Positions 35 to 43,209 of a stretch of DNA of 64,000 nt are shown here, piece after piece (position 1 is the stretch's first letter; each line of letters starts with the position of its first letter). Below the pieces are notes generated by a model, which searched no databases, was not told the origin of the DNA, and saw only the letters and a program-made list of their open reading frames with translations. The stretch covers positions 9,142-73,141 of IMG/VR virus record IMGVR_UViG_3300033553_000842; one strand, given 5' to 3'. The DNA comes from a virus. Made by a program: the position numbers and the translations under genes.

Positions 35-64
35 GTAATGGGGGAGTCGTTAATCCCCCATTAC
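35..64 (-). terminator. Stem-loop (11-bp stem) at the end of the 61..402 gene; possible terminator or processing site
   Basis: GTAATGGGGGA-N8-TCCCCCATTAC inverted repeat; no clear U tract. Confidence 0.45.
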
Positions 65-402
65 ATGGTAATCTCAAGAGCCTTCCTCAGCTGAGTGCGC
101 TCGGCGTCGGTGATATCCCCGAGATTGTTGATGAAATTGTCGACGTAGGGGTAGCAGTCGACCACAACCCATTCGTAGGCATACATTTCCATAACCATTT
201 GGATTGCTGCCTCCTCATCCTCCGGGTCGAGGCCGTGGATGCCGAAGTCCTCGTCAACCCAATAGTTATCGATGTGGGACGCTGCCATAAGGAGGCGGAG
301 CTCTTTCTCGGCGTCCTCATAGGAGTTGGCCTGGACGAGATCTCCATAGGTGCCACCCTCCGGATAGTCATGCCAGTTGGCGGTGCAGTAGTAGGTTTTC
401 AT
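61..402 (-). CDS. Acidic hypothetical early phage protein
   Basis: 113-aa ORF with AAAGGA RBS in the conserved TCCTGAAAGGAACAC block. Confidence 0.8.
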   Translation of the reverse strand: MKTYYCTANWHDYPEGGTYGDLVQANSYEDAEKELRLLMAASHIDNYWVDEDFGIHGLDPEDEEAAIQMVMEMYAYEWVVVDCYPYVDNFINNLGDITDAERTQLRKALEITM

Positions 403-414
403 GCCGTGTTCCTT

Positions 415-987
415 TCAGGAAATAAGGGTTGCACCGGCCACGTCCGCGGTGCGGAGCCTGACCAGATCTTTGGTTTTGAGGGAGCGGTAGACGCCCTTGC
501 GACGGTAGTATTGGATCTTTTCAAAATCCGTGCCATAGGGTTCCCACGGGGTCTGGATCCGGATCTTATCCCCGGTGCGGGGTTTCAGGCGATTGGCCCA
601 GGCGCGGCAGGAGGTACGCCACTGGGAGGCATACTCGTTTGTGGTGGGAGACAGCAGGTTCAGGATCAGGGGAGGGGCCTTAGCCTCGCCGGGGCCCATG
701 TCCTCGGTCATGTCCTTGTAGCTGAACTCGCCCTTGTCGATCGAGGTGAGGTAGATCGCAGCGAACACGATCGAGCCATCATGTTGAGGGGTGTATCCCG
801 AGATCATGTTGTCGGAGAGGGCCAGGTTAGGTTTTGGTTGCATTTTGACGGCAGCGTAGTAGGTGCTGCCGACGTTGCGGATCGCGAGGGGGGCGCAGCG
901 GTAGTTTTCGCTTTCCCACGTCAGATTCCTGGCGAGATACTTGAGGGGGTCGTCGGGTCGGTCGTAAAGTGTGGTCCCGCCCATCAT
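415..987 (-). CDS. Hypothetical phage protein (DUF6927-like)
   Basis: Conserved RBS block; FSYKDMTEDMGP..AP..IL..L...EYA..WR pattern typical of this phage/plasmid family. Confidence 0.7.
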   Translation of the reverse strand: MMGGTTLYDRPDDPLKYLARNLTWESENYRCAPLAIRNVGSTYYAAVKMQPKPNLALSDNMISGYTPQHDGSIVFAAIYLTSIDKGEFSYKDMTEDMGPGEAKAPPLILNLLSPTTNEYASQWRTSCRAWANRLKPRTGDKIRIQTPWEPYGTDFEKIQYYRRKGVYRSLKTKDLVRLRTADVAGATLIS

Positions 988-2177: not shown

Positions 2178-2646
2178 TATGCGTTCCTTTCTCCCTAAAA
2201 TAGGCATCGATCTTGGCGACGATTTCAGTCTTGCAGTACTGGTCCAGGATGTATCTGGCCTCTCCCAGCAGGCCCTCGGCGGTGGGTTTGTTGTGGGCGA
2301 TGCACAGCTCGATCCAGTTTGAGACAAGATCGGGGGTGCCGTGGACATAGGCCTGTTGGTTATCGAAGATGACGCAGTTTTCGATAAACCAAGGCACGAA
2401 ATCCCAGTCATAGGCCCCATACAGGTACTCGTCGGTGCCATTGGTGCAGATGACCCAGCCGTAGTGGATAGCTGAGGCAATGGCCCCGGCACACAGCCGG
2501 AGCTGGCCCAGGCCCTCGGGCCAGTTGTTGGGTTTCGTTTCGATCAGGTGCTCCCAAGCACACATCGCCGCTTCGAGTTCAATCTCGCGGGTCAGGGTGT
2601 GCTTATTGAGAAGCCCGGTATATCCCTTTGGGTGGTAATTTTTCAT
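2170..2646 (-). CDS. Hypothetical phage protein
   Basis: Start MKNYHPKG at 2646 behind the conserved RBS block. Confidence 0.75.
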   Translation of the reverse strand: MKNYHPKGYTGLLNKHTLTREIELEAAMCAWEHLIETKPNNWPEGLGQLRLCAGAIASAIHYGWVICTNGTDEYLYGAYDWDFVPWFIENCVIFDNQQAYVHGTPDLVSNWIELCIAHNKPTAEGLLGEARYILDQYCKTEIVAKIDAYFREKGTHNG

Positions 2647-2663
2647 CGTGTGTTCCTTTCGGA

Positions 2664-2774
2664 TTAAGTGTTGATGTGGCCGGTGCGGTGTCCGCAGCGC
2701 CGGCATACTTTCTGGGGGAAGCGGCGGGAATCTCGCCAGTGGTGGAAACCGAGGCGGCACAGGAGATATCTCAT
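2664..2774 (-). CDS. Small Cys/His protein, DUF1660-like (36 aa)
   Basis: MRYLLCRLGFHHW...VCRRCGH; ATGA overlap with the ardA stop. Confidence 0.6.
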   Translation of the reverse strand: MRYLLCRLGFHHWRDSRRFPQKVCRRCGHRTGHINT

Positions 2775-3304
2775 GGGGTATGGAAGAAGTGGCCGCTGTA
2801 CTCGACCAGTCCTCCTCCTGTTTCAAATTCTCTGCCGACGCTTTCCCAGTCGATATGGTAGCGGAAGCGGTCGGGGATCTCTTCGAGGCCACCTGTCTCC
2901 TCTTCGAACTGTTCGGCAAAGTCGGCCCAGCTGTCGTACTGGCCCCGGTAGTTGTCTTGGGGGTTCGCGTTATACTCGTGGTGGTAGGCGAGGACGATAT
3001 GCGGGGGCAGGTCGGGATTTTCTTCGAGGACTTCGACGAGGGCTGCGATCTCGGAGAGCGGGGTATATTCGCCAATATTGCCCAGACCCTCATGGTCGTG
3101 GATTGCAAATTCCTCGGCCGATGGGACCTCTTCCCCCGTCTCTGGGTCTTCGACCATGACGTTCGGGTAAGGTGACCGGCGCAGCAGGCCTGCGACTTCT
3201 TCAGCCATCTCGTCCTCGTCGGAGGTGGCGTCGATCCATTTGCCATGGAGGACGCCGTTGTTGTACGAGGCGAGGCAAGCGATGTAGATTCTAGGGGAGG
3301 TCAT
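2771..3304 (-). CDS. ardA: Anti-restriction protein ArdA (DNA mimic inhibiting type I RM)
   Basis: RIYIACLASYNNGVLHGKWIDA, EEFAIHDHEG and YHIDWESVGRE motifs; very acidic. Confidence 0.92.
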   Translation of the reverse strand: MTSPRIYIACLASYNNGVLHGKWIDATSDEDEMAEEVAGLLRRSPYPNVMVEDPETGEEVPSAEEFAIHDHEGLGNIGEYTPLSEIAALVEVLEENPDLPPHIVLAYHHEYNANPQDNYRGQYDSWADFAEQFEEETGGLEEIPDRFRYHIDWESVGREFETGGGLVEYSGHFFHTP

Positions 3305-3582
3305 CAGATATCCCCCCCGATTTTCCAGGTGTCCACATCGGGACAGACCTCCTTGACCCCGGTCAGGGGGTCAGAGGCTCGGAAGAAGGCTCGGCCGTCT
3401 TCTGTGACAACACACCATAGGGGTAGGCCGAGGCCCCAGTAGGCCCCGCCGCTGTCGTAACCCCCGTCTTCGAGAGGTACTGCGTGGAGGGTGCCTGTGC
3501 CTTCGGACATGGAAATGTTGTCAGATTGCCGCCCCATAGGGGCCCCATAACGGGAGGATACGTTGGCTAGTTGGTGCATCAT
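3304..3582 (-). CDS. Conserved hypothetical phage protein
   Basis: Conserved RBS block; YGAPMGR and GGYDSGGAYWG motifs. Confidence 0.8.
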   Translation of the reverse strand: MMHQLANVSSRYGAPMGRQSDNISMSEGTGTLHAVPLEDGGYDSGGAYWGLGLPLWCVVTEDGRAFFRASDPLTGVKEVCPDVDTWKIGGDI

Positions 3583-9103: not shown

Positions 9104-9178
9104 ACCGTCCTTTTTCCAAGATTAACCATTTTAGATATTCGCGCCATTCGCCCCGATCGATCGTGACGAACCCCTCTC

Positions 9179-31371: not shown

Positions 31372-34300
31372 GTGAATAAGGTCTTGCCTAAAGGCGCAGG
31401 GGGGGGCCCAAAGCCCCCTACGGTTCACGCCGTCACATACGTCTCTGAGGATATTTTTGAGATCAACCTAGGCGTTTGCGTGGGTCCAATTGCTGGCCTC
31501 TACGCAGGACCTCGTGCGTTCTATCTTGGGGATACGCCCCTGACGTCCCCCACAGGGGAAAACAACTTCGATCCGTTCGAGCTTCACGTCCACAACGGGG
31601 CCGATGTTGCCACCCCGGTGCATAACGCACTTGGAGGAATCTCCTCAAGCGAAAGTGTCAGCGTCCAGCTGGGCTATCTGACCCCCGTGGTCCGTGAAAC
31701 TGATGCTGGCCTGCGTAACCAGATTGACGTCCTCGAGATTCGTCTGTTTATTTCCCAACTGGTCAACAACACCTCGAGTGGGGATATCCTGAAAACCGAC
31801 ATCTCGGTTGATCTAGAATATCGCGAGAAGGGGACAACCACCTGGCTCCCGTTCATCGGGGACAACAAAACCTGGACTTACAACGGACGGATCGGGGGGG
31901 CGGTCAAAGAGTTCCGCCGGGTGGTCCCACGTATTAACGCCGACTGGGAACTTCGGGTTACCAAAAGTCTCGACGACGACACCACAAATGGGGTCTACCG
32001 GGATGTTTCCTGGGAGAGTTTCCAGTCTGTCATCCAAGAAGACAAGGCCTACAACAATACGGTTATTGTTCGAGGTCTCTCTGCGGCCAGTGACCAGTTG
32101 AACTCGGTACCCAACATGGCGGGGGTTTGGCGCGGCTTGATTGTCCAAGTCCCCTCCAACTATGATCCTGTAACCCGCTACTACGACGGGGTCTGGGATG
32201 GGTCATTCAAACTGGCCTATACCGATAACCCCGTATGGTGTCTCTATTATCTCCTTATGGATCCGGTGAACGGAGCCAGAGCCTACTTCCCGGGCCTGCA
32301 AACGGATCGTTTCAGTTTTTATGAGGCAGCACAGTGGTGTGACGGATTGGTCCCCCGCGGAAACACAGGCACGTATCAACCTCGGTACACCTACAACGAT
32401 CTGATCTCTCAGGTACGTCAGGGCCGTCAGACGTTGCAATACCTTGCAGGTCTGTTCGGTGGGGTAATTGCCGAAGACCTGGCGGGGACAATTATCCTGA
32501 AGGTTGACAAGCCGTCGGCCGTCACTCAGATCTTTGGCCCGGAGAGTGTGAGCTCTGAAGGTTTTTCCTATAGCTACACTGACATTGAAGGCCGGCCTAA
32601 CCAGAGCAAGGTCCAGTTTACAAACCCAGATCTGCAATGGGACAATGACCAGCGGCTCGTTGAGATCCAAGAGTACATCGACCGCAACGGCCTGACTGTG
32701 GACGACTACACCGCTGTAGGGTGTATCGACGAATACGAAGCCCAGCGGAGGGCTTACCTACGTCTTCTTCAGGCCAACACCGAAACCACCATGGTCAGTT
32801 TCTCGACCGCACGTCAGGGACTGCTGCTCGAGCCTTATGATGTGATCGGCATTGCCGACCCGGCCCAGAACTGGGGTCTGTCTGGTCGTGTGAAATCAGT
32901 ATCCGGGACCACCATCACGCTGCGGGATGCTCTAACAGTCCCCGCCCAGGTGGGTCTGACCCTCCAGGTTCAAACACCAACAGGTATCGAAACCCTGACC
33001 GTTCAATCCGCGACGGCCACAACAACCTCTCTCGAGATCACTGTCGGGACCTGGCCTACGAACGCCCCCGATCGAGCTCAGTTCAGCCTTGAGGATAACG
33101 TCACCTCAACTGGTTTGGTGAAGCCCTTCCGGATTCTGTCGATCGAGCCTAACGAGGAAGAGTCCTCCCTTGCGAACATCTCAGCGATTGAGGTGAACCC
33201 AAACAAGCATTCCGACGCGGACAACCTGACCCTAACCCAGGTGGTGGACTACACGGGGGTCTCAGCAATCCCCCGGGCCCCTCAAAACATTCGGATCGTT
33301 TCTGGCACCTCTGAGTCACTGACACACCAAGATGGTACGATCGAGAACCGGATCCTCGTAACTTGGGATGCCCCCTCGACCTACAAAATCAGAGTGTACT
33401 ACCGCCGGGAGGAATCTGACGAGTTCCAGGTAATCACCGCGTCCCAGAACCAAGTTTACATCCCAATGGCCAAGGCTGGGGAGCCCTATCTCATTGAGTT
33501 CAGGGGTGAGAATGAGTTCGGGATTCCCTTCCAAAAACTCACCCCGATCCTTCATCAAGTCACGGGTAAACGGGTTGATCTTCAGACCCCCACGAACTGG
33601 GTGGGGATCCCCGGGGTTCGCAGTGTAACCCTCGATGGTCCTGACAGCACCCTAAGAGACTTTGCTTATTTCGAAGTCTGGGCGGGTGAAGCAGGGTCTG
33701 TATTTGAAAACGCCTCAAAGATTGGCCAGGTAGCAGCCAGCCTCTTTACATATACCCTACCCGCAGCTTCTCTGTTTGCGAGGTACTGGGTGTTGGAAGT
33801 CGATACCTCCGGCAACCCTTCAGCCCCGTCGAATGCCATAGATGTTTTACCTGAGCCGGTTAAATCTACCGAGATTGAAGCCGCTGTCACTGAGCAGATC
33901 GAGGCTACTAGAGCTAAAGCCGACGCAGTCAGAGCGGACCACGATGCGTTGATCCTCAATTTCACCAAGACCAATCTTGGCGAACTTGAGGTGGACTATA
34001 ACGCAACACAAGCTGCTGCCAATGACGCTCTTGTAGCAGCGACCGCTTCTGAAGCCGACAGGCTCCTGGCTGAAGCCGCAGCTAATGTCGCATCCGTATC
34101 CGAGACAAACGCAGCGGCTAGCTCTATTTCTGCAAGTGCCTCAGAAGCCTTTGCTCTTGCTGGAGCTGTCGACGCCACTGATGCAGCAAATGCAGCAAAT
34201 GCTTCTGAGACAAACGCAGCGGCTAGTGAGACAAACGCAGCGAACAGCTCTATTTCTGCAAATGCTTCAGAAGCATTTGCCCTTGCTGGCGCTGTAGATG

Positions 34301-36207
34301 CCACTGATGCCAGCGTTATTGCTGAAAACGCCAAGGTTGAAAGCATCGCAGCGCGAAATCAATCCGAGACATATCAAACAGCGTCCCTCGCAGCGCAGGC
34401 TGCATCCGAGCTTGCCCGTAATGAAGCGCAAACACAAGCCACCAGCGCGGCTGGAAGCGCTACGGCATCCGCAGGTCATGCGCAAACAGCTCAGGCGTCA
34501 GAAACTGCATCAGGCTCTAATGCAACCGCTGCACAGGCGGCGCAAGTGTCGGCAGAAGCAGCTCGCGATCAATCGTCGAATACTGCAACCGCATCTTCCG
34601 CAAGCGCAGCCGCAGCCGCTGCGTCTGAAACCGCAGCGGGGTCTAGTGCAGCCGCGACCGCTCTGGATCGACAGGCAGCTCAGACGGCCCGCGCAGGAGC
34701 TGAAACAGCCGAGACAAATGCTGCAACCAGTGAAACAAACGCAAGTGGATCGGCTGCTACCGCGACGACCGAAGCCAACAATGCGGCAACATCAGAGACC
34801 AACGCGGGGGCTAGCGCAACTGCTGCCGCAGGTTCTGCTTCAACCGCTTCCACAAAGGCGACAGAGGCTGGCCAGGACGCCACAGCCGCCAACGCCGCAA
34901 AGCTGGCAGCTCAGACGGCCCGCGCAGGAGCCGAAACAGCAGAATCTAACGCCGCAACCAGCGAGACAAGCGCGGCAGGGTCCGCCGCAAGCGCCAGCAG
35001 CAGTGCAACAAATGCTGCAACCAGTGAGAATAACGCAGGCTCTAGTGCAACAGCGGCAGCGTCCAGCGCCTCTCTGGCCTCTACAAAGGCTACTGAATCC
35101 TCTCAATCGGCCACAGCCGCCAACACTGCAAAGCTGAACGCGGAAACAGCCCGCGCAGGAGCTGAAACAGCCGAGACAAATGCAGCAACCAGCGAGACAA
35201 GTGCGGCAGGGTCTGCGGCAACAGCTAGCACGTCCGCGAGCAACTCCGCCGCCAGTGAGACCGCGGCGGGTGGTCACGCCACTGCCGCGGCTACGAGTGC
35301 GTCGGTGGCGACGACCAAAGCAGGTGAAGCTTCACAGAGCGCGACGACCGCAACAACCCAGGCTAACACTGCGACAACCAAAGCAGGAGAGGCCTCCACA
35401 TCAGCCACGAATGCAGCGACTTCTGAAACAGGAGCAAATAATTCTGCTGCTTCGGCACTGATCTCCGAGAATGCTGCGGCCACCAGTGAAACTGCATCTG
35501 GTATTCAAGCCACAGCGTCTGCAAACAGTGCAGGCGTTGCGACAACAAAAGCGACAGAAGCCGCTCAATCGGCTTCCGCTGCTGACGTAAGCAAGACGGC
35601 CGCAGAAACTGCAAAATCAAATGCGGAGTCTTCTGAAACTGCCGCTGCACTAAGTGCTTCCAATGCTTCTGGATCAGAGGCAGCCGCAGGCACATCTGAG
35701 ACAAATGCTGCTGCCTCCGAAACTGCATCAGGAAGCAGCGCCACTGCGGCTGCATCGAGCGCCTCACTGGCGTCAACCAAGGCGACAGAGGCTGGCCAGG
35801 ACGCCACGGCGGCGAACGCGTCAAGATTGGCTGCTGAGACAGCCGAGTCAAACGCCAGCGTGTCCGAAGCCAGTGCTGCGCAAAGCTCAACCGACGCAAC
35901 CGGCTCAGCCTCCAGTGCACAGACTTCCAGCGTTCTGTCCTCTGTGACCTTTGATGAAAGCCTGAAGGCTGCGCGTGAGGGAACCAGAGCCGGAATGGCA
36001 ACTGTTTCAGGAGCCGGCAATGGCCAGTTTCAGCAAGGCTGGACCGGCTGGATCACAATCACCGGTCTGACGACCAACTTTTCCAACAGAACCGAGATCG
36101 AGACAGGCGTTCTGTTTGGTGACGATGGCGCGACCATCGCCTCCATCGATCTTAACCTTGAACTTACACAAATCGTCCGAGCGGGCGAAGGGGATATAGT
36201 AGTATGA
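31372..36207 (+). CDS. Tail tip / host specificity protein J-like, N-terminal part with Ala/Ser/Thr repeat stalk
   Basis: KGAGGG start, VPSNYDP..RYY.G.WDGSFK.AYTDNP.W core, FN3-like region, 77-aa repeats. Confidence 0.9.
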   Translation: MNKVLPKGAGGGPKPPTVHAVTYVSEDIFEINLGVCVGPIAGLYAGPRAFYLGDTPLTSPTGENNFDPFELHVHNGADVATPVHNALGGISSSESVSVQLGYLTPVVRETDAGLRNQIDVLEIRLFISQLVNNTSSGDILKTDISVDLEYREKGTTTWLPFIGDNKTWTYNGRIGGAVKEFRRVVPRINADWELRVTKSLDDDTTNGVYRDVSWESFQSVIQEDKAYNNTVIVRGLSAASDQLNSVPNMAGVWRGLIVQVPSNYDPVTRYYDGVWDGSFKLAYTDNPVWCLYYLLMDPVNGARAYFPGLQTDRFSFYEAAQWCDGLVPRGNTGTYQPRYTYNDLISQVRQGRQTLQYLAGLFGGVIAEDLAGTIILKVDKPSAVTQIFGPESVSSEGFSYSYTDIEGRPNQSKVQFTNPDLQWDNDQRLVEIQEYIDRNGLTVDDYTAVGCIDEYEAQRRAYLRLLQANTETTMVSFSTARQGLLLEPYDVIGIADPAQNWGLSGRVKSVSGTTITLRDALTVPAQVGLTLQVQTPTGIETLTVQSATATTTSLEITVGTWPTNAPDRAQFSLEDNVTSTGLVKPFRILSIEPNEEESSLANISAIEVNPNKHSDADNLTLTQVVDYTGVSAIPRAPQNIRIVSGTSESLTHQDGTIENRILVTWDAPSTYKIRVYYRREESDEFQVITASQNQVYIPMAKAGEPYLIEFRGENEFGIPFQKLTPILHQVTGKRVDLQTPTNWVGIPGVRSVTLDGPDSTLRDFAYFEVWAGEAGSVFENASKIGQVAASLFTYTLPAASLFARYWVLEVDTSGNPSAPSNAIDVLPEPVKSTEIEAAVTEQIEATRAKADAVRADHDALILNFTKTNLGELEVDYNATQAAANDALVAATASEADRLLAEAAANVASVSETNAAASSISASASEAFALAGAVDATDAANAANASETNAAASETNAANSSISANASEAFALAGAVDATDASVIAENAKVESIAARNQSETYQTASLAAQAASELARNEAQTQATSAAGSATASAGHAQTAQASETASGSNATAAQAAQVSAEAARDQSSNTATASSASAAAAAASETAAGSSAAATALDRQAAQTARAGAETAETNAATSETNASGSAATATTEANNAATSETNAGASATAAAGSASTASTKATEAGQDATAANAAKLAAQTARAGAETAESNAATSETSAAGSAASASSSATNAATSENNAGSSATAAASSASLASTKATESSQSATAANTAKLNAETARAGAETAETNAATSETSAAGSAATASTSASNSAASETAAGGHATAAATSASVATTKAGEASQSATTATTQANTATTKAGEASTSATNAATSETGANNSAASALISENAAATSETASGIQATASANSAGVATTKATEAAQSASAADVSKTAAETAKSNAESSETAAALSASNASGSEAAAGTSETNAAASETASGSSATAAASSASLASTKATEAGQDATAANASRLAAETAESNASVSEASAAQSSTDATGSASSAQTSSVLSSVTFDESLKAAREGTRAGMATVSGAGNGQFQQGWTGWITITGLTTNFSNRTEIETGVLFGDDGATIASIDLNLELTQIVRAGEGDIVV
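34681..35900 (+). repeat. 231-bp (77-codon) degenerate tandem repeat array
   Basis: Equivalent positions at 34681, 34912, 35143, 35374, 35605 and 35836. Confidence 0.85.
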
Positions 36208-37838
36208 GCAACATCAATTCAGCCCTCGTAAAAGCCGCAGTCGATGCTCTTACGTCCAAGGTAAACGGCGTCATCGCCACAGCCACAGACAGCGTATCAG
36301 CCGCCGCCCTGGCGCTTGGCTACCGTGACACGACGCTGGCCTACAAAAACCAGGCTGACGCAGCAGCCGCTCTGGCACTGCAGTACAAGAACGACGTTGC
36401 CAGTGCGATTGTATATCAGGACTTGTCTTCGATCGCCCTGTCGAAAGGCATCACCGCAACCGCCATGTGCATCGACACATCGCCAAACCCGCCGCTGTCA
36501 GTGCAGCGGGCGACAAGCTGGTTTGCTGAGTTGGGGCCAATGCCCGCGACAAAGGTGGTGCTTGTTACCGTGTTTTCGGTCACGATTTATGACGGTGATG
36601 ATCCGTCCCATCCTGTGTGGGCGACGTTTAATAGCGGCGTTTCAAAAATGCTTTTTAGAGGTGATTTTAGCTGCGTTTCTCTTGAAAATGGAATTCTCTC
36701 TGTAGGGTCTAACAACACAAACGGCGGCGTAAGCGTAGTTGACTTTTCACAGGATATGCGCACCCTTTATTACGGCGCAGAGACTTATGTATTCAATGGC
36801 AACATATCTGAAAGAAACATTGACAAAGGGCAGACCTTAAAAACAGCGACGGGTGGGATTGTAAACCGAGTAATCAACGCAGTCGCAATGCACGTCTACG
36901 ATGACGCACCTGTTGATCCTGTATCCGGTCTGCAAATCCCGACGATTGCTGTTGGTACGGCTGGCGGTGTGAGCGTTATTCTGGATGATGGGACTGTTGT
37001 TGATAGTGGTAGCACTTTCCCTGCTGACAACATTATTGTGACGGAACAAGGTCTCTGGTGGACAGCATCGGGAATAACTTTGCATTTTGCAACGTGGTCT
37101 GACATTGAGGCGGGCGATGGTTTTGGTGATGTAATCGCTCATATTTTTGGTGGTAGTGGACTGTTTCGGCAGCAAACCCGTTTCGATCGTTTGATTAACC
37201 TTGGCTCTAATCAGCTTGCATGGACATCGGCAGCTTCATATTCCAATACAGTACGGGGTTTGCAGAAGCGTTTGCTTAACTACGCTGACCAGACCAAAGG
37301 CATGTCGGCTCTTATCACATCCTCCTACAACACAGGCTGGATGGTCGGAGACATCAAAGGAGCATTCCTTTCCAGCACGGACACGGCGAGTTTGGTTGCG
37401 AGTGAACAGGTCACGAATGGTACGTTTGATGTTGACCTGTCGGGGTGGACGCAAACAGGCAATAACGCAAATAATTTTTGGGAATTTAGCGCCGGAAAAG
37501 CCCGCGTGGTTTCTGACGGTGGTTTTACACCACTGCAGCAGACAACCAGTTTGGTTGTTGGCAAAAGGTACTGTCTGACCGTTGATGTCACAAAAACCGC
37601 AGGCTCGGTTAAAGTAGGTACAAATTCTACTGTCGATAATATTTCATCTTCCCTTGCTGCCGGAGCTAACAGCATCTTTTTTACGGCCAGTGCAACAACA
37701 CTATACTTTTCGCGGGTTCCAGGTGTCGTCGATTGCACCATCGACAACGTATCCCTCAAACTAGCCGACGCTGACCGCTCAGTGAACGCCAACGGCCTAA
37801 TCGTCAACGGCACAATCACGCGTACACCGGTGGCTTGA
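36204..37838 (+). CDS. Tail fibre / lectin protein, N-terminal part (CBM-like domain)
   Basis: Beta-rich; VTNGTFDVDLSGW...IDNVSLK CBM signature; ends ...GTITRTPVA. Confidence 0.8.
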   Translation: MSNINSALVKAAVDALTSKVNGVIATATDSVSAAALALGYRDTTLAYKNQADAAAALALQYKNDVASAIVYQDLSSIALSKGITATAMCIDTSPNPPLSVQRATSWFAELGPMPATKVVLVTVFSVTIYDGDDPSHPVWATFNSGVSKMLFRGDFSCVSLENGILSVGSNNTNGGVSVVDFSQDMRTLYYGAETYVFNGNISERNIDKGQTLKTATGGIVNRVINAVAMHVYDDAPVDPVSGLQIPTIAVGTAGGVSVILDDGTVVDSGSTFPADNIIVTEQGLWWTASGITLHFATWSDIEAGDGFGDVIAHIFGGSGLFRQQTRFDRLINLGSNQLAWTSAASYSNTVRGLQKRLLNYADQTKGMSALITSSYNTGWMVGDIKGAFLSSTDTASLVASEQVTNGTFDVDLSGWTQTGNNANNFWEFSAGKARVVSDGGFTPLQQTTSLVVGKRYCLTVDVTKTAGSVKVGTNSTVDNISSSLAAGANSIFFTASATTLYFSRVPGVVDCTIDNVSLKLADADRSVNANGLIVNGTITRTPVA

Positions 37839-37840
37839 TT

Positions 37841-38530
37841 ATGAAACGTCAATATAAACGCATGACCAAAGAGGACGAAGATTTCATTGTGGCAAACGAC
37901 GCCACCATGTCTATCAGCCAGATGTGCGAGGCTCTTGGGAGAGCCAAGGGAACTGTCGATAAGGCTCGTAGACGCCTCGGTCTGAGGAAAGACTTTCACA
38001 CCCCTTGGACTGATGCAGAAGCTGCTGTCGTTAAGGCCAATCCAACGATGGGAAACTCTGAAATAGCGGCCCTACTCGAAGGACGCACTGCTAACAATGT
38101 CAGCAGTTGGCGCTATCACAATGGTCTACGAATGGAGCGATCCTGTGCAAAATGCGGATGCGAGTATTTTCATAAATCTAGTGCCTCTAAATTGTGTGGT
38201 GAGTGTTGGGTTTCGGGGGCATTGCCCAATAGCGCAAATCCTCTTGTTCGCTTTGGGTACTATCGTGATGGAGCTAAAAGCCGAGCCATCGAGTTCGACC
38301 TGAGCGAACAAGAGTTCTTCTCGTTTTGGGGTAAGTCCTGCACCTACTGCGGAGCAGATATTGAGGGCATTGGGCTAGACCGTATTGACTCAAAGACAGG
38401 GTACAAGATGAGCAACGTCACGCCATGTTGCGGAAGATGTAATGAAATGAAGATGGCAGATACCGTTGACCAATGGAAAGCGCAGATGACCCGCATCTTA
38501 TCACATATGGAGAAAAACAATGACTGCTGA
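37841..38530 (+). mobile_element. Free-standing HNH-type (His-Me finger) homing endonuclease
   Basis: CTYCG...GLDRIDS..GY...NV.PCC..CN.MK; N-terminal HTH-like repeats and CxxC pairs. Confidence 0.85.
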
Positions 38531-39254
38531 ACTTGTCGCCTATTCGGGGTTCTCTGCAACCAACTATCTCGAACAACCGTACAACCCTGACCTTGATTTC
38601 GGCACAGGTGATTTCTGTGTGATGGGGTGGGCAACGGCATCTGCCGCCTCTGATTGGCTTCTTGATCGGAAGACGCCTGGAGACAATGCCAGCGTGGGGT
38701 TTGACTTGTATCAGTCTGATGGGGATACCAACGGCGGTAATTTGAGATTTGGCACAAGGAGTAGTATTGGCGGTACTCTTACCACCACAGACGTAGGTGA
38801 GGTGACTTCAAAGTTTACCTATTTCGCAGTTGCTCGAAAAGGTGGTGTCGTTTCAACCTACATTAACGGGACTATTACTGGGTCAAATACAAACACCACT
38901 GATTTGACAAACATCTCGGCTAATACATTTATCGGCCTTCGTTCTAATTTGAGCGCTCAATATCTCAATGGCTCACTCGCCCTCATACGCATCGGCGCAA
39001 CAGCCCCAAGCCCTGACCAAATCCGCAAAATCTACAATGACGAGAAAGCCCTGTTCCAACCCAACGCCGCTTGTACCTTGTTCGGCACATCGGACGCGGT
39101 GACAGCACTGGCCCATGACGAAATCACAGGGCTGGATCACGCGGGTACATCGGCTGGACGGTCTGACTTCTCTGGCTTGATCCGAGTGGGCAACACTACC
39201 ACGCCCGTCACAACGGCAATCGCCGCAAACAATTCTCTGATACTGGAACAGTAA
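38520..39254 (+). CDS. LamG/ConA-like lectin domain protein, C-terminal part of the interrupted fibre gene
   Basis: DFGTGDFCVMGW, YFAVARKGG..STYING, FIG, LNGSL..IRI; GGAG RBS inside the HNH gene. Confidence 0.85.
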   Translation: MTAELVAYSGFSATNYLEQPYNPDLDFGTGDFCVMGWATASAASDWLLDRKTPGDNASVGFDLYQSDGDTNGGNLRFGTRSSIGGTLTTTDVGEVTSKFTYFAVARKGGVVSTYINGTITGSNTNTTDLTNISANTFIGLRSNLSAQYLNGSLALIRIGATAPSPDQIRKIYNDEKALFQPNAACTLFGTSDAVTALAHDEITGLDHAGTSAGRSDFSGLIRVGNTTTPVTTAIAANNSLILEQ

Positions 39255-39255
39255 C

Positions 39256-39906
39256 ATGACCGTAAGAATAGCAAAACCGGCGATTAACCTGCGTGAAGAA
39301 CTGGTCAGGCTGAGAACCCTGCCAACGTATCGTGAGGAAGAGTTTTATTTCGACAGCTTGGTCGAGAATGGGACTTTTGACAGCGATACTATTTGGACAC
39401 TAACGGGGGGTTCAATAACGGGTGGAGAATATGTCGGACCCGCCTCTGGTGCTCAAGGTGTCCAACAGAATAGCAAAACGCCCCTTGGGACGAAAAGGTA
39501 CAAGGTGCAGTTTGACGCCAGTGTTGCAGCGTCTGTAACCACCGTGTTTTTACGCCTTGGGTCTAATACTAATGTTTTAGATTGGACGGTTGGCACCACC
39601 CCAACAACTTTCAGCGGGGTTGCTACGGCTGGCGGGGTTAGTGAACTGATTTATCTTCTTTCTGGTGGTGCCAACACCCTGCGGCTAGACAATATCACAC
39701 TCTTCGAGGTCGATGCCAACGGCGACGTAATCCACACAATGAAGCAAGGCTGGTTGCCCAAATACTTTTTCGAAGACGGGCTTAAAATCCGTGAAGGTGT
39801 GGCGCATGACTATGAAGCCTATACGGACGGTTTCAGGTGGTTCGTCAAGCCAAGCGTGACACCCGGCGCGTTGACAGAAACCTGCATCATTGGAGTGAAA
39901 GCATGA
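39256..39906 (+). CDS. CBM-like virion protein
   Basis: MTVRIAKPAINLRE start; LVENGTFDSD..W and LDNITL. Confidence 0.75.
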   Translation: MTVRIAKPAINLREELVRLRTLPTYREEEFYFDSLVENGTFDSDTIWTLTGGSITGGEYVGPASGAQGVQQNSKTPLGTKRYKVQFDASVAASVTTVFLRLGSNTNVLDWTVGTTPTTFSGVATAGGVSELIYLLSGGANTLRLDNITLFEVDANGDVIHTMKQGWLPKYFFEDGLKIREGVAHDYEAYTDGFRWFVKPSVTPGALTETCIIGVKA

Positions 39907-40451
39907 ATATCCTGAACCTGAAACTCGGTGATGCGCCCAAGACCGCCGCAACAATCGAGAAGGCCAAGGCCCGGTACATGAACGCAATGGGTTGGACAGC
40001 GACAAAGCGTGACGACGCCATGAATGAAGGGGCATTCCTTTTGACAGGGTACATCCAGACAGCGCCAATGTTTGACAAAGCGATGGTGGACCTATCGCGG
40101 TTCGAACTTGATCTGGCTGAGACGTACCAGATCAACGCCTTCAATGCGCAGCTTGCCGCATATCGTGCTGCCAAGACACGTCTTGGACGGCATGTCCTTG
40201 CAGATGGTCAGCTTGAGGTCATAGAGGAGTTTGACCCTGAGACGGGTGAACCACTCACGGAACCCGTTGTCGTACAGCAAGCCATCGAACCCTTGGACGC
40301 AACTGTGGTCATCACCGAATATGACGAAGAAGGTGCGGCCATGGATTTCACGGTGGCGAACCCGCTGATCGCAATCGACGAGGCTCAACGTGACCATGCC
40401 CAATCTGTGATCGACGCGACCCCTGAAGGAGTGATCGCGTATGCCACTTGA
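39903..40451 (+). CDS. Hypothetical fibre-associated protein
   Basis: ATG at 39903 with GGAG RBS; NPLI.ID.A.R..AQSVIDATP C-terminus. Confidence 0.7.
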   Translation: MNILNLKLGDAPKTAATIEKAKARYMNAMGWTATKRDDAMNEGAFLLTGYIQTAPMFDKAMVDLSRFELDLAETYQINAFNAQLAAYRAAKTRLGRHVLADGQLEVIEEFDPETGEPLTEPVVVQQAIEPLDATVVITEYDEEGAAMDFTVANPLIAIDEAQRDHAQSVIDATPEGVIAYAT

Positions 40452-43209
40452 TTACACTGGGGTAGGAGCTGCACAGTTTGATGAACCGGCCACACTGGTC
40501 TGGGGTTCGTCCTTGCCTGTTCTGCCCGACACTGTGCTTCAGCTCACTCTGAGTGTCGCGAAGGTCAACGGGGCAAACGCCAGCATTGTCGCTGGACTGA
40601 TCTGCTATGACGAGACCGGCAATGACGTCGGTCAACTCCTGACCATCTCTGAGACCGTAAGCAGCGCAGACTGGCAAGAGTTTGTCCAGAGCTTCTCCGG
40701 CTGGCCCGCAGGTACAGTTTCGGTGCTGCAAGTGTTCCAGCATCAAACATCTGGCAGCACGATCCAGGTCGATGAGTTTTCCTATGAAGACGTGACGGCA
40801 GTGGTTGCCGCTGAAGCCGCCGTGATCTCGGCCCAGACAGCGACAACAAAAGCGACCGAAGCCGGGACGTCAGCCACGGCGGCTCAAAGCGAACGCGTTC
40901 TGGCTGAGACTGCCAGGTCGGGTGCAGAAACCGCAGAGACAAATGCCGCGGCATCTGAAACCAGTGCTTCTGGATCTTCCGCAGCCGCCTCGACCAGCGC
41001 CTCAAACGCAGCCAACAGCGCCACCCAGTCGGGCAACTCTGCAACGGCGGCAGCAAGTTCAGCCTCAACTGCTTCTACAAAGGCCACAGAGGCATCACAG
41101 GACGCCACAGCGGCGGCGTCAGAGCGCCTTGCAGCCGAGACTGCTCGATCTGGTGCAGAGAGCGCGGAGACGGGCGCTGTCACAGCAAAGAACACCTCAG
41201 AGAGCGCAGCGGCGACCGCCACTAGTAAAGCGACACTGGCCGCTCAAAGCGAAACCAATGCGGGAAACTCAGCTACCGCCGCAGCAGGAAGTGCATCTAC
41301 AGCAACAACCAAGGCCACAGAGGCATCACAGTCAGCTTCCACGGCCACAACGCAAGCCAACACGGCGACAACAAAGGCCGGAGAGGCGTCAACCTCTGCC
41401 AGCCAAGCAGCGACGTCAGCCACTAACGCTGATGGGTCCGCTTCCTCAGCCTCGACAAGCGTGACAAACGCGGCCAACAGTGAAACAGCAGCAGGTAACT
41501 CCGCCAGCGCTGCGGCGACCGATGCGTTCACTGCAACAACCAAAGCAGGCGAAGCATCAACCAGTGCAACTGCGGCCAACGCGGCTAAACTAGCTGCGCA
41601 GACGGCTCAATCTAATGCGGAAACCGCTGAAACGAATGCCGCAACGAGTGAGACAAACGCCAGTGGGTCTGCCTCCTCAGCCTCAACCAGTGCAACAAAC
41701 GCGGCCAACAGCAACACGGCCGCGGGCAACTCAGCCACAGCCGCTGCTAATTCAGCCTCAACTGCAACAACCAAAGCGAGCGAAGCCGGTACATCTGCTA
41801 CATCAGCGTCCACGTCAGCCAACACCGCGTCGACCAAAGCCGCTGAAGCTTCCACATCTGAGACAAACGCAGCGACCAGCGCCACGTCGGCTTCTGGATC
41901 TTCAGCTGCGGCCATCTCTGCCAAAGACACCGCTGTTGCTGTCGCCTCTCAAGGTGGAGGCGTTCTGTCTGACATGACGTTGCCCTACGGGGCAGGAAAA
42001 TGGGGTGCCTATTCTACAGGCCCAACACTTACCGCGAGTGAAATTTACCCCACAGGCAATACCTGGACTTGGAACCTGGCGGCAAACGCCAGTGGTGGGG
42101 CAGTAATTTCGCAAATCAGTCCGCTCTGGACAGGTGTTAAATTTGCCGACGGTTTTCGTGTCGAAGTAACCTACAAGTTGATCTCTGGTACATTGCAAGG
42201 CGCAGGTGTCCTGCTCGATTTCTATCCCGCAACCGGAAGTCACCAGAGGGTTCAGAAGTCTCTCGAAGAGATGACCCCTGGAACGGTAATCACTGGCGCT
42301 GTCATGCAGGCCAGTGCTGTGTTTGATAAACCCGCAGGCATCACCACGTCGGGCGGTGTCGGGGTCTATTTCATGGCCAGCGCGTCGCTCTTCGGTGCAC
42401 AGGACGCCAAGAACATCAAGATTTACAGCATCCAGGTCTATCCGATTTCGGTCACTGAGGCGTCTGTCAAAGAACAGGCATCAACTATTGTCGATCTTCA
42501 GGGGAACGCGTCCGCTGGGTACCTGATCAAAGCGCAAGCCGGTTCAGAGGTGTCGCTTCTGGATCTGATCGCAGCTGATGGCGCTGCGGGGGCTGTTTCG
42601 GTGGCCAAGATCAGCGCCACAAGCATCCTGCTGGATGGTACAGTCACAGCCGATCATATCAACGTGACGTCACTAGACGCAATCTCAGCCAATTTGGGAA
42701 CCATCCAAGTAGGTAGCGCGAATATAGCCGACGCGGCGATCACCAATGCCAAGATCGGTGATACGATCCAATCTAACGACTTCGTAGCTGGATCAGCTGG
42801 CTGGCGTATTCTGAAAACTGGCTCTGCTGAGTTTAACGGTGTCGTTATTTCCCGTGATCAGGTCGTTGGCTCAGGCACTGCCTCCATCCCAACTACACAA
42901 TGTTCCCAGCAGGGCTTTTTCACAAATGATGGCGTGTTTTGGATCGACACAGGTCTATCAACTTCGGCATGGACCGGTAGCGATGCAAGTTACAGCGCCG
43001 CTGTTGGACGTAATGGAAGTAACGGAACAATATTTAACACCAACAATGCCACCACTACGGAGCGACAGTGGGGATGGGCTGCGGAGGTAATCCCCATCAC
43101 AAGATGGACCGGGGGAGCGACGTTGTTTATAAAGGTTGAGCTTTGGACAAAAAACGTAAGCGCAGCTTCAGGTTTCATACTTGATTGGAAGGTTAAGAAG
43201 GTAACATGA
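40441..43209 (+). CDS. Tail tip / fibre protein carrying the J-like C-terminal region
   Basis: Partial CBM, 77-aa repeats, then ANIADAAITNAKIGDTIQSNDFVAGSAGWRI.K.GSAEFN typical of J C-termini. Confidence 0.85.
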   Translation: MPLDYTGVGAAQFDEPATLVWGSSLPVLPDTVLQLTLSVAKVNGANASIVAGLICYDETGNDVGQLLTISETVSSADWQEFVQSFSGWPAGTVSVLQVFQHQTSGSTIQVDEFSYEDVTAVVAAEAAVISAQTATTKATEAGTSATAAQSERVLAETARSGAETAETNAAASETSASGSSAAASTSASNAANSATQSGNSATAAASSASTASTKATEASQDATAAASERLAAETARSGAESAETGAVTAKNTSESAAATATSKATLAAQSETNAGNSATAAAGSASTATTKATEASQSASTATTQANTATTKAGEASTSASQAATSATNADGSASSASTSVTNAANSETAAGNSASAAATDAFTATTKAGEASTSATAANAAKLAAQTAQSNAETAETNAATSETNASGSASSASTSATNAANSNTAAGNSATAAANSASTATTKASEAGTSATSASTSANTASTKAAEASTSETNAATSATSASGSSAAAISAKDTAVAVASQGGGVLSDMTLPYGAGKWGAYSTGPTLTASEIYPTGNTWTWNLAANASGGAVISQISPLWTGVKFADGFRVEVTYKLISGTLQGAGVLLDFYPATGSHQRVQKSLEEMTPGTVITGAVMQASAVFDKPAGITTSGGVGVYFMASASLFGAQDAKNIKIYSIQVYPISVTEASVKEQASTIVDLQGNASAGYLIKAQAGSEVSLLDLIAADGAAGAVSVAKISATSILLDGTVTADHINVTSLDAISANLGTIQVGSANIADAAITNAKIGDTIQSNDFVAGSAGWRILKTGSAEFNGVVISRDQVVGSGTASIPTTQCSQQGFFTNDGVFWIDTGLSTSAWTGSDASYSAAVGRNGSNGTIFNTNNATTTERQWGWAAEVIPITRWTGGATLFIKVELWTKNVSAASGFILDWKVKKVT
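40906..41930 (+). repeat. Second 231-bp degenerate tandem repeat array
   Basis: Equivalent positions at 40906, 41137, 41368, 41599 and 41830. Confidence 0.85.

Follow-up and report, generated by a model that had tools for sequence, protein, structure and literature searches.

Does a single phage structural gene, cut in two by a free-standing endonuclease gene, account for three tightly packed open reading frames (ORFs) in the tail module of an uncultured virus, and could the two pieces still yield a working protein? The ORFs in question (36204-37838, 37841-38530 and 38520-39254) lie directly 3' of the gene for a 1611-amino-acid (aa) lambda-J-like central fibre in a stretch of 64,000 nucleotides (nt), hereafter the window, from IMG/VR record IMGVR_UViG_3300033553_000842 (positions 9,142 to 73,141). 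An original prediction proposed that an HNH endonuclease gene here splits a lectin-like tail-fibre gene and donates the signal from which its downstream part is restarted. On the sequence comparisons described below, we regard the locus as a new and well-supported gene in pieces, of the kind represented by nrdA and mobE of Aeromonas phage Aeh1, and residing in a structural gene. The interrupted, fibre-like gene comprises about 790 codons, and belongs to the tail module of a siphovirus-like phage or prophage, where it directly follows the J-like central fibre gene. The positions proposed for the upstream stop (37838), the HNH start codon (37841) and the GGAG with its ATG (38520) were all right, and the features are as follows:

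36204-37838, + strand: N-terminal piece of the split fibre-like gene (N piece), 544 aa; TGA stop codon at 37836-37838.
37829-37833, + strand: GGTGG, a Shine-Dalgarno-like motif in the last N-piece codons (P-V-A), 7 nt 5' of the HNH ATG.
37836-38522, + strand: cassette inserted relative to intact alleles, 687 nt, consisting of stop codon, 2-nt spacer, HNH gene and new ATG.
37841-38530, + strand: free-standing HNH-type endonuclease gene, 229 aa; stop codon at 38528-38530.
38509-38512, + strand: GGAG, Shine-Dalgarno motif for the C-terminal piece, within the HNH C-terminal codons (...HMEKNN...) and 7 nt 5' of the ATG at 38520.
38520-39254, + strand: C-terminal piece (C piece), 244 aa; shares 11 nt, from its ATG onwards, with the HNH ORF.

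Evidence that the outer two ORFs are pieces of one gene comes from relatives in which the gene is uninterrupted. When 5.8 billion proteins were searched with the N piece and the best 120 matches considered, most were of 750-950 aa, carried the LamG domain PF13385 and covered 87-100% of the query; single-chain homologues of about 800 aa are 33-43% identical to the N piece over 87-100% of its length. Alignment of ten homologues with both window pieces places the pieces end to end without loss, such that the family reads ...TRTPVATGA(E/D)LVAYSGFS... where the window reads ...TRTPVA, a stop codon, and then M-T-AELVAYSGFS.... The LamG consensus given in the original prediction was correct, the uninterrupted homologues reading ...NGLxVNGTxTRxPVATGA(D/E)LVAYSGFSxxNYLxQPYNxDLDFGTGDF in the alignments, and because this consensus is continuous in them we take the split as genuine, located at a peptide that is conserved, and not as an ORF pattern arising by chance. 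The N piece thus ends ...TRTPVA-TGA (longer C-terminal readings are ...DRSVNANGLIVNGTITRTPVA and ...NGLIVNGTITRTPVA), and the C piece begins at ATG 38520 with MTAELVAYSGFS (longer reading MTAELVAYSGFSATNYLEQPYNPDLDFGTGDF) and scores 44.3 bits with Pfam Laminin_G_3 (PF13385; cut-off 27.6) over residues 23-168. At the window junction the host glycine codon of VATGA is absent, as comparison with about 60 intact alleles showed at the DNA level and also at the protein level.

A count over viral loci gave the same result. An alignment search of viral contigs with the C piece, from which the best 80 of 240 matches were taken, defined 79 loci, in 74 of which the frame continues through the junction, 51 of them having 398 or more open codons upstream and 23 staying open to the edge of the locus, the shortest of these with 4 open codons upstream. 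The other five are split, and each carries an endonuclease gene at the break; homologues without the HNH gene are single genes, and not, as the original prediction had allowed, likewise pairs. A 12.7-kilobase (kb) contig of a related phage from the same sample (run X2) has 127 nt where the window (37792-38601) has 808 nt, the length expected of an uninterrupted, HNH-free allele. The two DNA runs that contain the window are probably its own source and so are not independent support for it. Among the 50,697 GenBank phage records, neither the 3-kb region (blastn) nor the C piece (tblastn) found a match.

The two halves do not appear to be decaying, as had been named as a possible objection. The N piece keeps 64 of 76 conserved columns, the 12 misses clustering in a loop deletion common to the intact homologue P0011, and the C piece keeps 40 of 41. 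Pairwise ratios of nonsynonymous to synonymous divergence (dN/dS) among the C pieces of split alleles range over 0.14-0.52, although with dS at saturation. In the related split loci, too, the pieces are intact.

Scans of viral and metagenome contigs for HNH genes at least 47% identical to that of the window identified 13 distinct loci, in which the arrangement is closely maintained. A C piece starting at the same motif directly follows the HNH gene in all 12 loci with a 3' flank, and an N piece ending ...VA-stop or ...VDEV-stop precedes it in nine of the ten with a 5' flank. GGAG or GGAGA lies 5-9 nt before the C-piece ATG in 12 of the 13, these being all that reach the 3' end of the HNH gene, and the HNH C-terminus (...HMEKNNG-stop in most loci) encodes both the GGAG and the C-piece ATG; this conservation supports the proposal that the element donates the restart. 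The C pieces of other split loci begin MGKLVAYSGFS, MGDKLVAYSGFS or MAAELMAYSGFS. L015, one of these loci, is on a contig of 444 kb, possibly a bacterial one. Of 119 short C-half proteins among the matches listed, 32 start M-x(1-4)-L(V/M)AYSGF and another 11 start 17 residues upstream (M..GLIVNGT...).

The upstream junction is similarly economical. CGGTGGC precedes the N-piece stop in all of the '...VA-stop' alleles (the window, L004, L015 and L019), and in the '...VDEV-stop' alleles the codons spell GAGGTG instead; lying a few nt before the HNH start, either Shine-Dalgarno-like sequence may serve in HNH initiation, and the junctions show signs of built-in translational coupling. A promoter and terminator scan found no terminator-like site on the + strand between the three ORFs, and promoter-like matches around them were no better than in shuffled sequence. 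The insertion point itself falls within a conserved stretch, immediately after the VA of VATGA(E/D)LVAYSGFS: by nucleotide conservation over 39 distinct intact alleles (0.81; median 0.57), the junction's 36-nt segment takes rank 134 of 2119, with the consensus ...GTaGCt followed across the insertion point by ACtGGcGCtGAtcTgGTGGCcTAc....

The inserted gene is probably an HNH-type endonuclease gene, in agreement with the original prediction, as indicated by matches of PHROG HNH, endonuclease and endonuclease VII families to residues ~100-225 of its product (E 7e-12 to 3e-11). The predicted layout has two Myb/Tc3-like helix-turn-helix repeats at the N-terminus, then a Cys-rich segment and, at the C-terminus, a PacI-like beta-beta-alpha-metal nuclease domain, and a profile of 12 homologues searched against the PDB found Myb repeats at residues ~6-88 (E 0.001) and PacI at residues ~100-201 (E 0.039). 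In an AlphaFold model (predicted local distance difference test, pLDDT, 77) the N-terminus matches small helix-turn-helix domains, and the best structural match, over residues 127-228, is PacI (3m7k_A; Z 7.6, root-mean-square deviation (rmsd) 6.4, 96 residues aligned), with the Gme HNH nicking enzyme 4h9d also found (Z 5.0, rmsd 4.2, 75 aligned), both Z values being middling. The 12 homologues share 57 invariant columns, and Cys pairs and Asn residues are invariant. Membership of the nuclease family is likely. The gene is single copy in its 73-kb virus record, and 11 close homologues of its product (46-57% identity) occur in metagenomes; GenBank phages yielded distant nuclease domains only (no more than 44% identity over no more than 53% of the length), species-representative genomes one distant HNH relative only, and an NCBIfam search nothing useful.

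To consider how two polypeptides might work as one, the junction was located in a model of the intact homologue P0047 (793 aa, pLDDT 82.3, predicted template modelling score 0.80), in which the host protein is predicted to combine a beta-propeller, a LamG domain and a carbohydrate-binding-module (CBM)-like domain. WD40-type propellers align over the range 60..793 (3ow8_B, Z 20.2, rmsd 2.7, 257 aligned) and ConA/LamG jelly-rolls over 391..722 (5hon_A, Z 20.9, rmsd 2.5, 195 aligned). As the propeller alignment reaches residue 793, the last ~50 residues would belong to the N-terminal propeller, and as the ConA/LamG alignment begins at 391, the LamG sandwich would use strands from before the CBM-like insert; the ranges give the first and last aligned residues only, and the nesting is in part deduced from them. 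The junction corresponds to the loop between strands 542-547 and 555-558. On this model the N piece would hold an Ala-rich N-terminus, most of the propeller, the first LamG strands, the CBM-like insert and the strand ...GLIVNGTITRTPVA, and the C piece the remaining LamG sandwich, a helix and the last propeller blade, so that the cut is predicted to lie inside a LamG sandwich nested in a beta-propeller, and the halves to interlock. Four uninterrupted relatives (L080, L081, L083 and L084) apparently do without the CBM-like insert, their N-piece matches ending at ~405-413 with the frame open into the LamG part.

Complementation of the LamG fold, suggested in the original prediction as a check, is consistent with complex prediction for the two window pieces. 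The interface score ipSAE (interaction prediction score from aligned errors) was 0.92, 0.91 and 0.92, compared with 0.00 for the best of three controls; of 80 solved complexes 58 attain that mark, as do 2 of 110 mismatched pairs. At least 76% of contacts coincide between runs, with partner pLDDT of at least 88. In the predicted contacts, residues 371-394 and 530-544 of the N piece meet 3-25 and 152-163 of the C piece, and residues 185-244 of the C piece meet 84-92, 116-131 and 329-373 of the N piece.

The explanation that we consider probable, with good though not complete confidence, is that a free-standing, homing-type HNH gene has inserted itself into the fibre-like gene, which is now expressed as two unspliced pieces that re-associate, the element supplying the restart and spreading by homing. 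The cassette provides a stop codon for the upstream part, its own ORF and, in its last codons, a GGAG-N7-ATG from which the downstream part would restart, so that the gene now consists of three tightly packed, overlapping ORFs, which would be co-transcribed and translationally coupled. With neither RNA nor protein splicing, two polypeptides would be made and, because the cut lies inside a nested fold, these may re-associate non-covalently: strands from the N piece (~371-394 and 530-544) would complete the C-piece LamG sandwich, and the last blade, from the C piece (~185-244), would close the N-piece propeller. The endonuclease would cut HNH-free alleles at the conserved junction sequence and spread by repair, with the recoded junction protecting the allele that bears it.

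Several observations weigh against this explanation. No Pfam family matches the HNH protein at E up to 0.1, its structural matches are of the middling quality given above, and in its motif (...GLDRID...N..PCC..CN.MK) the canonical first histidine is not obvious in ...GLDRID..., so that its catalytic competence is at most putative. One of the ten loci with a 5' flank, L016, has no recognisable N piece in its 248 nt of that flank. Proportions of synonymous differences among alleles (0.39-0.84) are saturated and mixed, and with synonymous divergence saturated neither recent homing nor purifying selection after the split can be dated. The alignments used for complex prediction contain single-chain homologues, and its outcome accordingly indicates that the pieces fit as they do in the intact protein, as distinct from assembly in the cell. 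The 'tail fibre' label and a role of the split gene in the virion are suggested by gene order and PHROG matches at the level of LamG, and the sole metatranscriptome run of the source study contains none of the window stretch.

Some observations favour alternatives in which one full-length protein is still made, through removal of the insert as a degenerate group I or II intron or an intein, or through long-range ribosomal bypassing: introns or inteins are where homing endonucleases usually reside, the gene of one relative (L115) carries an apparent split intein, though elsewhere in its sequence, and the window halves share a frame. That shared frame follows from the length of the insert, 687 nt being a multiple of 3, and its in-frame reading meets 10 stops; in L002, L003, L012 and L017 the halves lie in different frames, which argues against read-through, bypass or an intein. 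The cassette is coding throughout except for the 2 nt between the N-piece stop and the HNH ATG, and the HNH ORF overlaps the C piece at its 3' end, so that, as the original prediction noted, an intron core would not fit. No intron family was matched when 35500-40000 was scanned with Rfam at E up to 10, and neither piece has a Hint or intein domain, the pieces ending and beginning with host residues, in keeping with the lack of intein motifs noted in the original prediction. An insert of ~690 nt is also far beyond the 50-nt bypass of T4 gene 60, as described in part of a preprint (bioRxiv 10.1101/2022.08.31.505936). We give very little credence to this group of alternatives, of which the spliced-RNA version would join ...GTGGCT to ACTGCTGAA.

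It is also conceivable, but unlikely, that the split allele is dead or dying, the insertion having inactivated a dispensable accessory fibre of which the ORFs are remnants. In favour of this are tandem paralogues in some phages (L058, L061, L098 and L116 each have two junction motifs, that is, two nearby paralogous genes of the family) and a 922-aa fibre-like gene close by in the window (40441-43209). Against this, both ORFs are complete and retain the conserved columns counted above, the C piece is open behind a conserved Shine-Dalgarno motif and ATG in all 12 related split loci with a 3' flank, dN/dS stays below 1 even for divergent split alleles, whose C pieces are 51-65% identical, and the window ORFs showed no second member of the family. 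Finally, the two-gene form could be the older, with the ~800-aa proteins as fusions, or the HNH protein could be a domesticated factor, for example in packaging or regulation, and not mobile; the many short C-half-like proteins in metagenomes would agree with the former, and the DNA-binding helix-turn-helix repeats could serve a regulator. These readings are highly improbable, given that the cut is predicted to fall between two strands of one domain, inside the LamG sandwich, that single genes account for 74 of the 79 loci and an endonuclease gene is present in 5 of 5 split viral loci, that three unrelated endonuclease families occur at sites in the fibre-like gene, and that HNH identity does not track the identity of the flanking C pieces.

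To our knowledge, genes split by free-standing homing endonucleases that work as separate polypeptides amount to very few cases, all of them enzymes of DNA metabolism. The nrdA gene of Aeh1, split by the free-standing HNH gene mobE, was reportedly described by Friedrich and colleagues in 2007 as one of the 'genes in pieces'. As there, the window has a free-standing HNH gene in a conserved coding region with neither intron nor intein, and its pieces are kept in order, in an operon-like arrangement, and would work as separate polypeptides. Unlike Aeh1, the host gene is a structural, fibre-like gene of the tail module and not an enzyme of nucleotide metabolism, the endonuclease is predicted to combine N-terminal Myb-like helix-turn-helix repeats with a PacI-like nuclease, differing in this from mobE, and many metagenomic phages have the same arrangement. 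For Aeh1, part of the report by Crona et al. 2011 (PMC3045599) describes new tails, arising from the insertion, as essential to assembly, whereas the window allele adds almost nothing (M and T replacing TG), its assembly being predicted to proceed via the interlocked nested fold.

Other known arrangements differ more. The term 'fractured genes' has been applied, in a portion of Dassa et al. 2009 (PMC2677866), to the pairing of a split intein and an endonuclease that stands free between the halves of a gene; intein halves are absent from the window, and it is the relative L115 that appears to show such an arrangement, at another site. An extract from the above preprint on the T4 topoisomerase genes 39 and 60 describes mobA and the 50-nt gene 60 bypass element, and here too a phage gene is split by an HNH-type mobile element, which contributes sequence for expression of the downstream part, but the window has no 50-nt bypass element, its restart being an ordinary Shine-Dalgarno motif and ATG in the 3' end of the endonuclease gene. 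Sections of Barth et al. 2023 (PMC10448857) describe homing endonuclease genes in or near structural genes where similarity between phages changes, a pattern to which the similarity switch at the family junction in L097/L112 (below) may be likened, and have endonuclease genes bracketing gene islands, unlike the window case; within those sections only ribonucleotide reductase is cited as a gene split into two working peptides. The open-licence papers and preprints searched hold no description of an intron-less, intein-less split fibre or virion gene, or of the split-gene family.

The case is notable for its structural host gene, for translational signals carried by the element, for a cut inside a nested fold and for its recurrence across uncultured phages. 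As a recurrent example in a virion module it offers many natural split and unsplit alleles for comparison, together with a concrete hypothesis of assembly, in which strands and a blade complement each other to restore the nested propeller/LamG fold. Its own harm seems to be offset by the mobile element, in that it carries a ribosome-binding site and a start codon for the downstream piece. For annotation the case serves as a warning that a short LamG ORF beside an HNH gene in a phage metagenome may encode just part of a fibre protein, and the junction may also mark a boundary for swaps of receptor-binding modules between phages.

Evidence bearing on mobility and exchange came from comparison of the relatives. 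HNH genes can be more alike than the C pieces that adjoin them (90% vs 59% for L003/L014, 88% vs 64% for L003/L012), which suggests horizontal spread of the HNH gene. Amongst 741 pairs of intact alleles, one (L097/L112) goes from 39% identity before the junction to 96% behind it, changing over at ...DRSVN.NGLQVFGTVTK / VATGADLVAYSGFS; in at least this case the junction is thus also a recombination boundary, and the pattern points to exchange of the C-terminal LamG-plus-blade module. That the C piece might vary more than the N piece, as the receptor-binding part, was not supported, mean identity over the 741 pairs being 38.8% before and 51.8% after the junction.

Further invasions of the gene family were found in the following relatives:

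L003/L013 and L005/L020: gene in three pieces, with a second HNH gene, ~33% identical to that of the window, in the N part.
L024: N-part fragment, then an HNH gene ~36% identical to that of the window, where the contig ends.
L103 (1-1249): classical PF01844 HNH (25.6 bits, cut-off 21.4) at the site used in the window, with the same MGK restart (MGKLVAYSGFS).
L115 (1-3965): gene in four pieces, with an apparent split intein and an HNH gene between its halves, after PTIA and before (V)ATDGGVSVI, and an endonuclease gene at an upstream site.

L103 suggests that one endonuclease gene has been replaced by an unrelated one at a site already split. The intein halves of L115 read ...PTIA then CLVAETEV... 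in the N part and ...VHN then CATDGGVSVI in the C part, with the HNH gene at 841-1506 between them, and their matches are sub-threshold (Hint E 2e-4; C-end of Intein_splicing E 1.3e-4); a His-Me-finger endonuclease (PF05551, 27.7 bits) follows at 2485-3198, and then a C piece that starts 17 residues upstream of the window junction. L115 would thus be an apparent 'fractured gene' in a structural gene. Across relatives of the fibre-like gene, no fewer than four insertion sites are in use, and the elements comprise three unrelated endonuclease families together with an apparent split intein. It is possible, if rather doubtful on present evidence, that the family is a hotspot for selfish elements, in which nested, interlocked domains tolerate encoding in two to four pieces and the endonucleases, with their built-in signals for translational coupling, drive exchange of the C-terminal LamG-plus-blade module through cuts at the conserved linker; if true, these would be engines of receptor-binding-module shuffling and not mere passengers. 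On the three-piece contig L003:1210-5381, which is common to L013 and L070, the second, shorter HNH gene (2883-3389) ends ...EKRNG-stop and restarts a middle piece MADKTFGSS..., and metagenome proteins of ~322 aa start MADKTFGSS... or MKNFGSTSG....

The window is part of a 73-kb virus record that is classed as a provirus and lies on a contig of ~159 kb. Besides the J-like fibre, its siphovirus-type structural module includes a large terminase, a portal, a major head protein and a tape measure of 1822 aa, and further genes encode a primase, a ribonucleotide reductase, a DNA polymerase and an endolysin. The J-like fibre and the 922-aa fibre-like protein have in common long Ala/Ser/Thr-rich repeats (...ATSETNAAGSA...; window positions 33800-35900 and 40900-41950), which give rise to many spurious ORFs on both strands.

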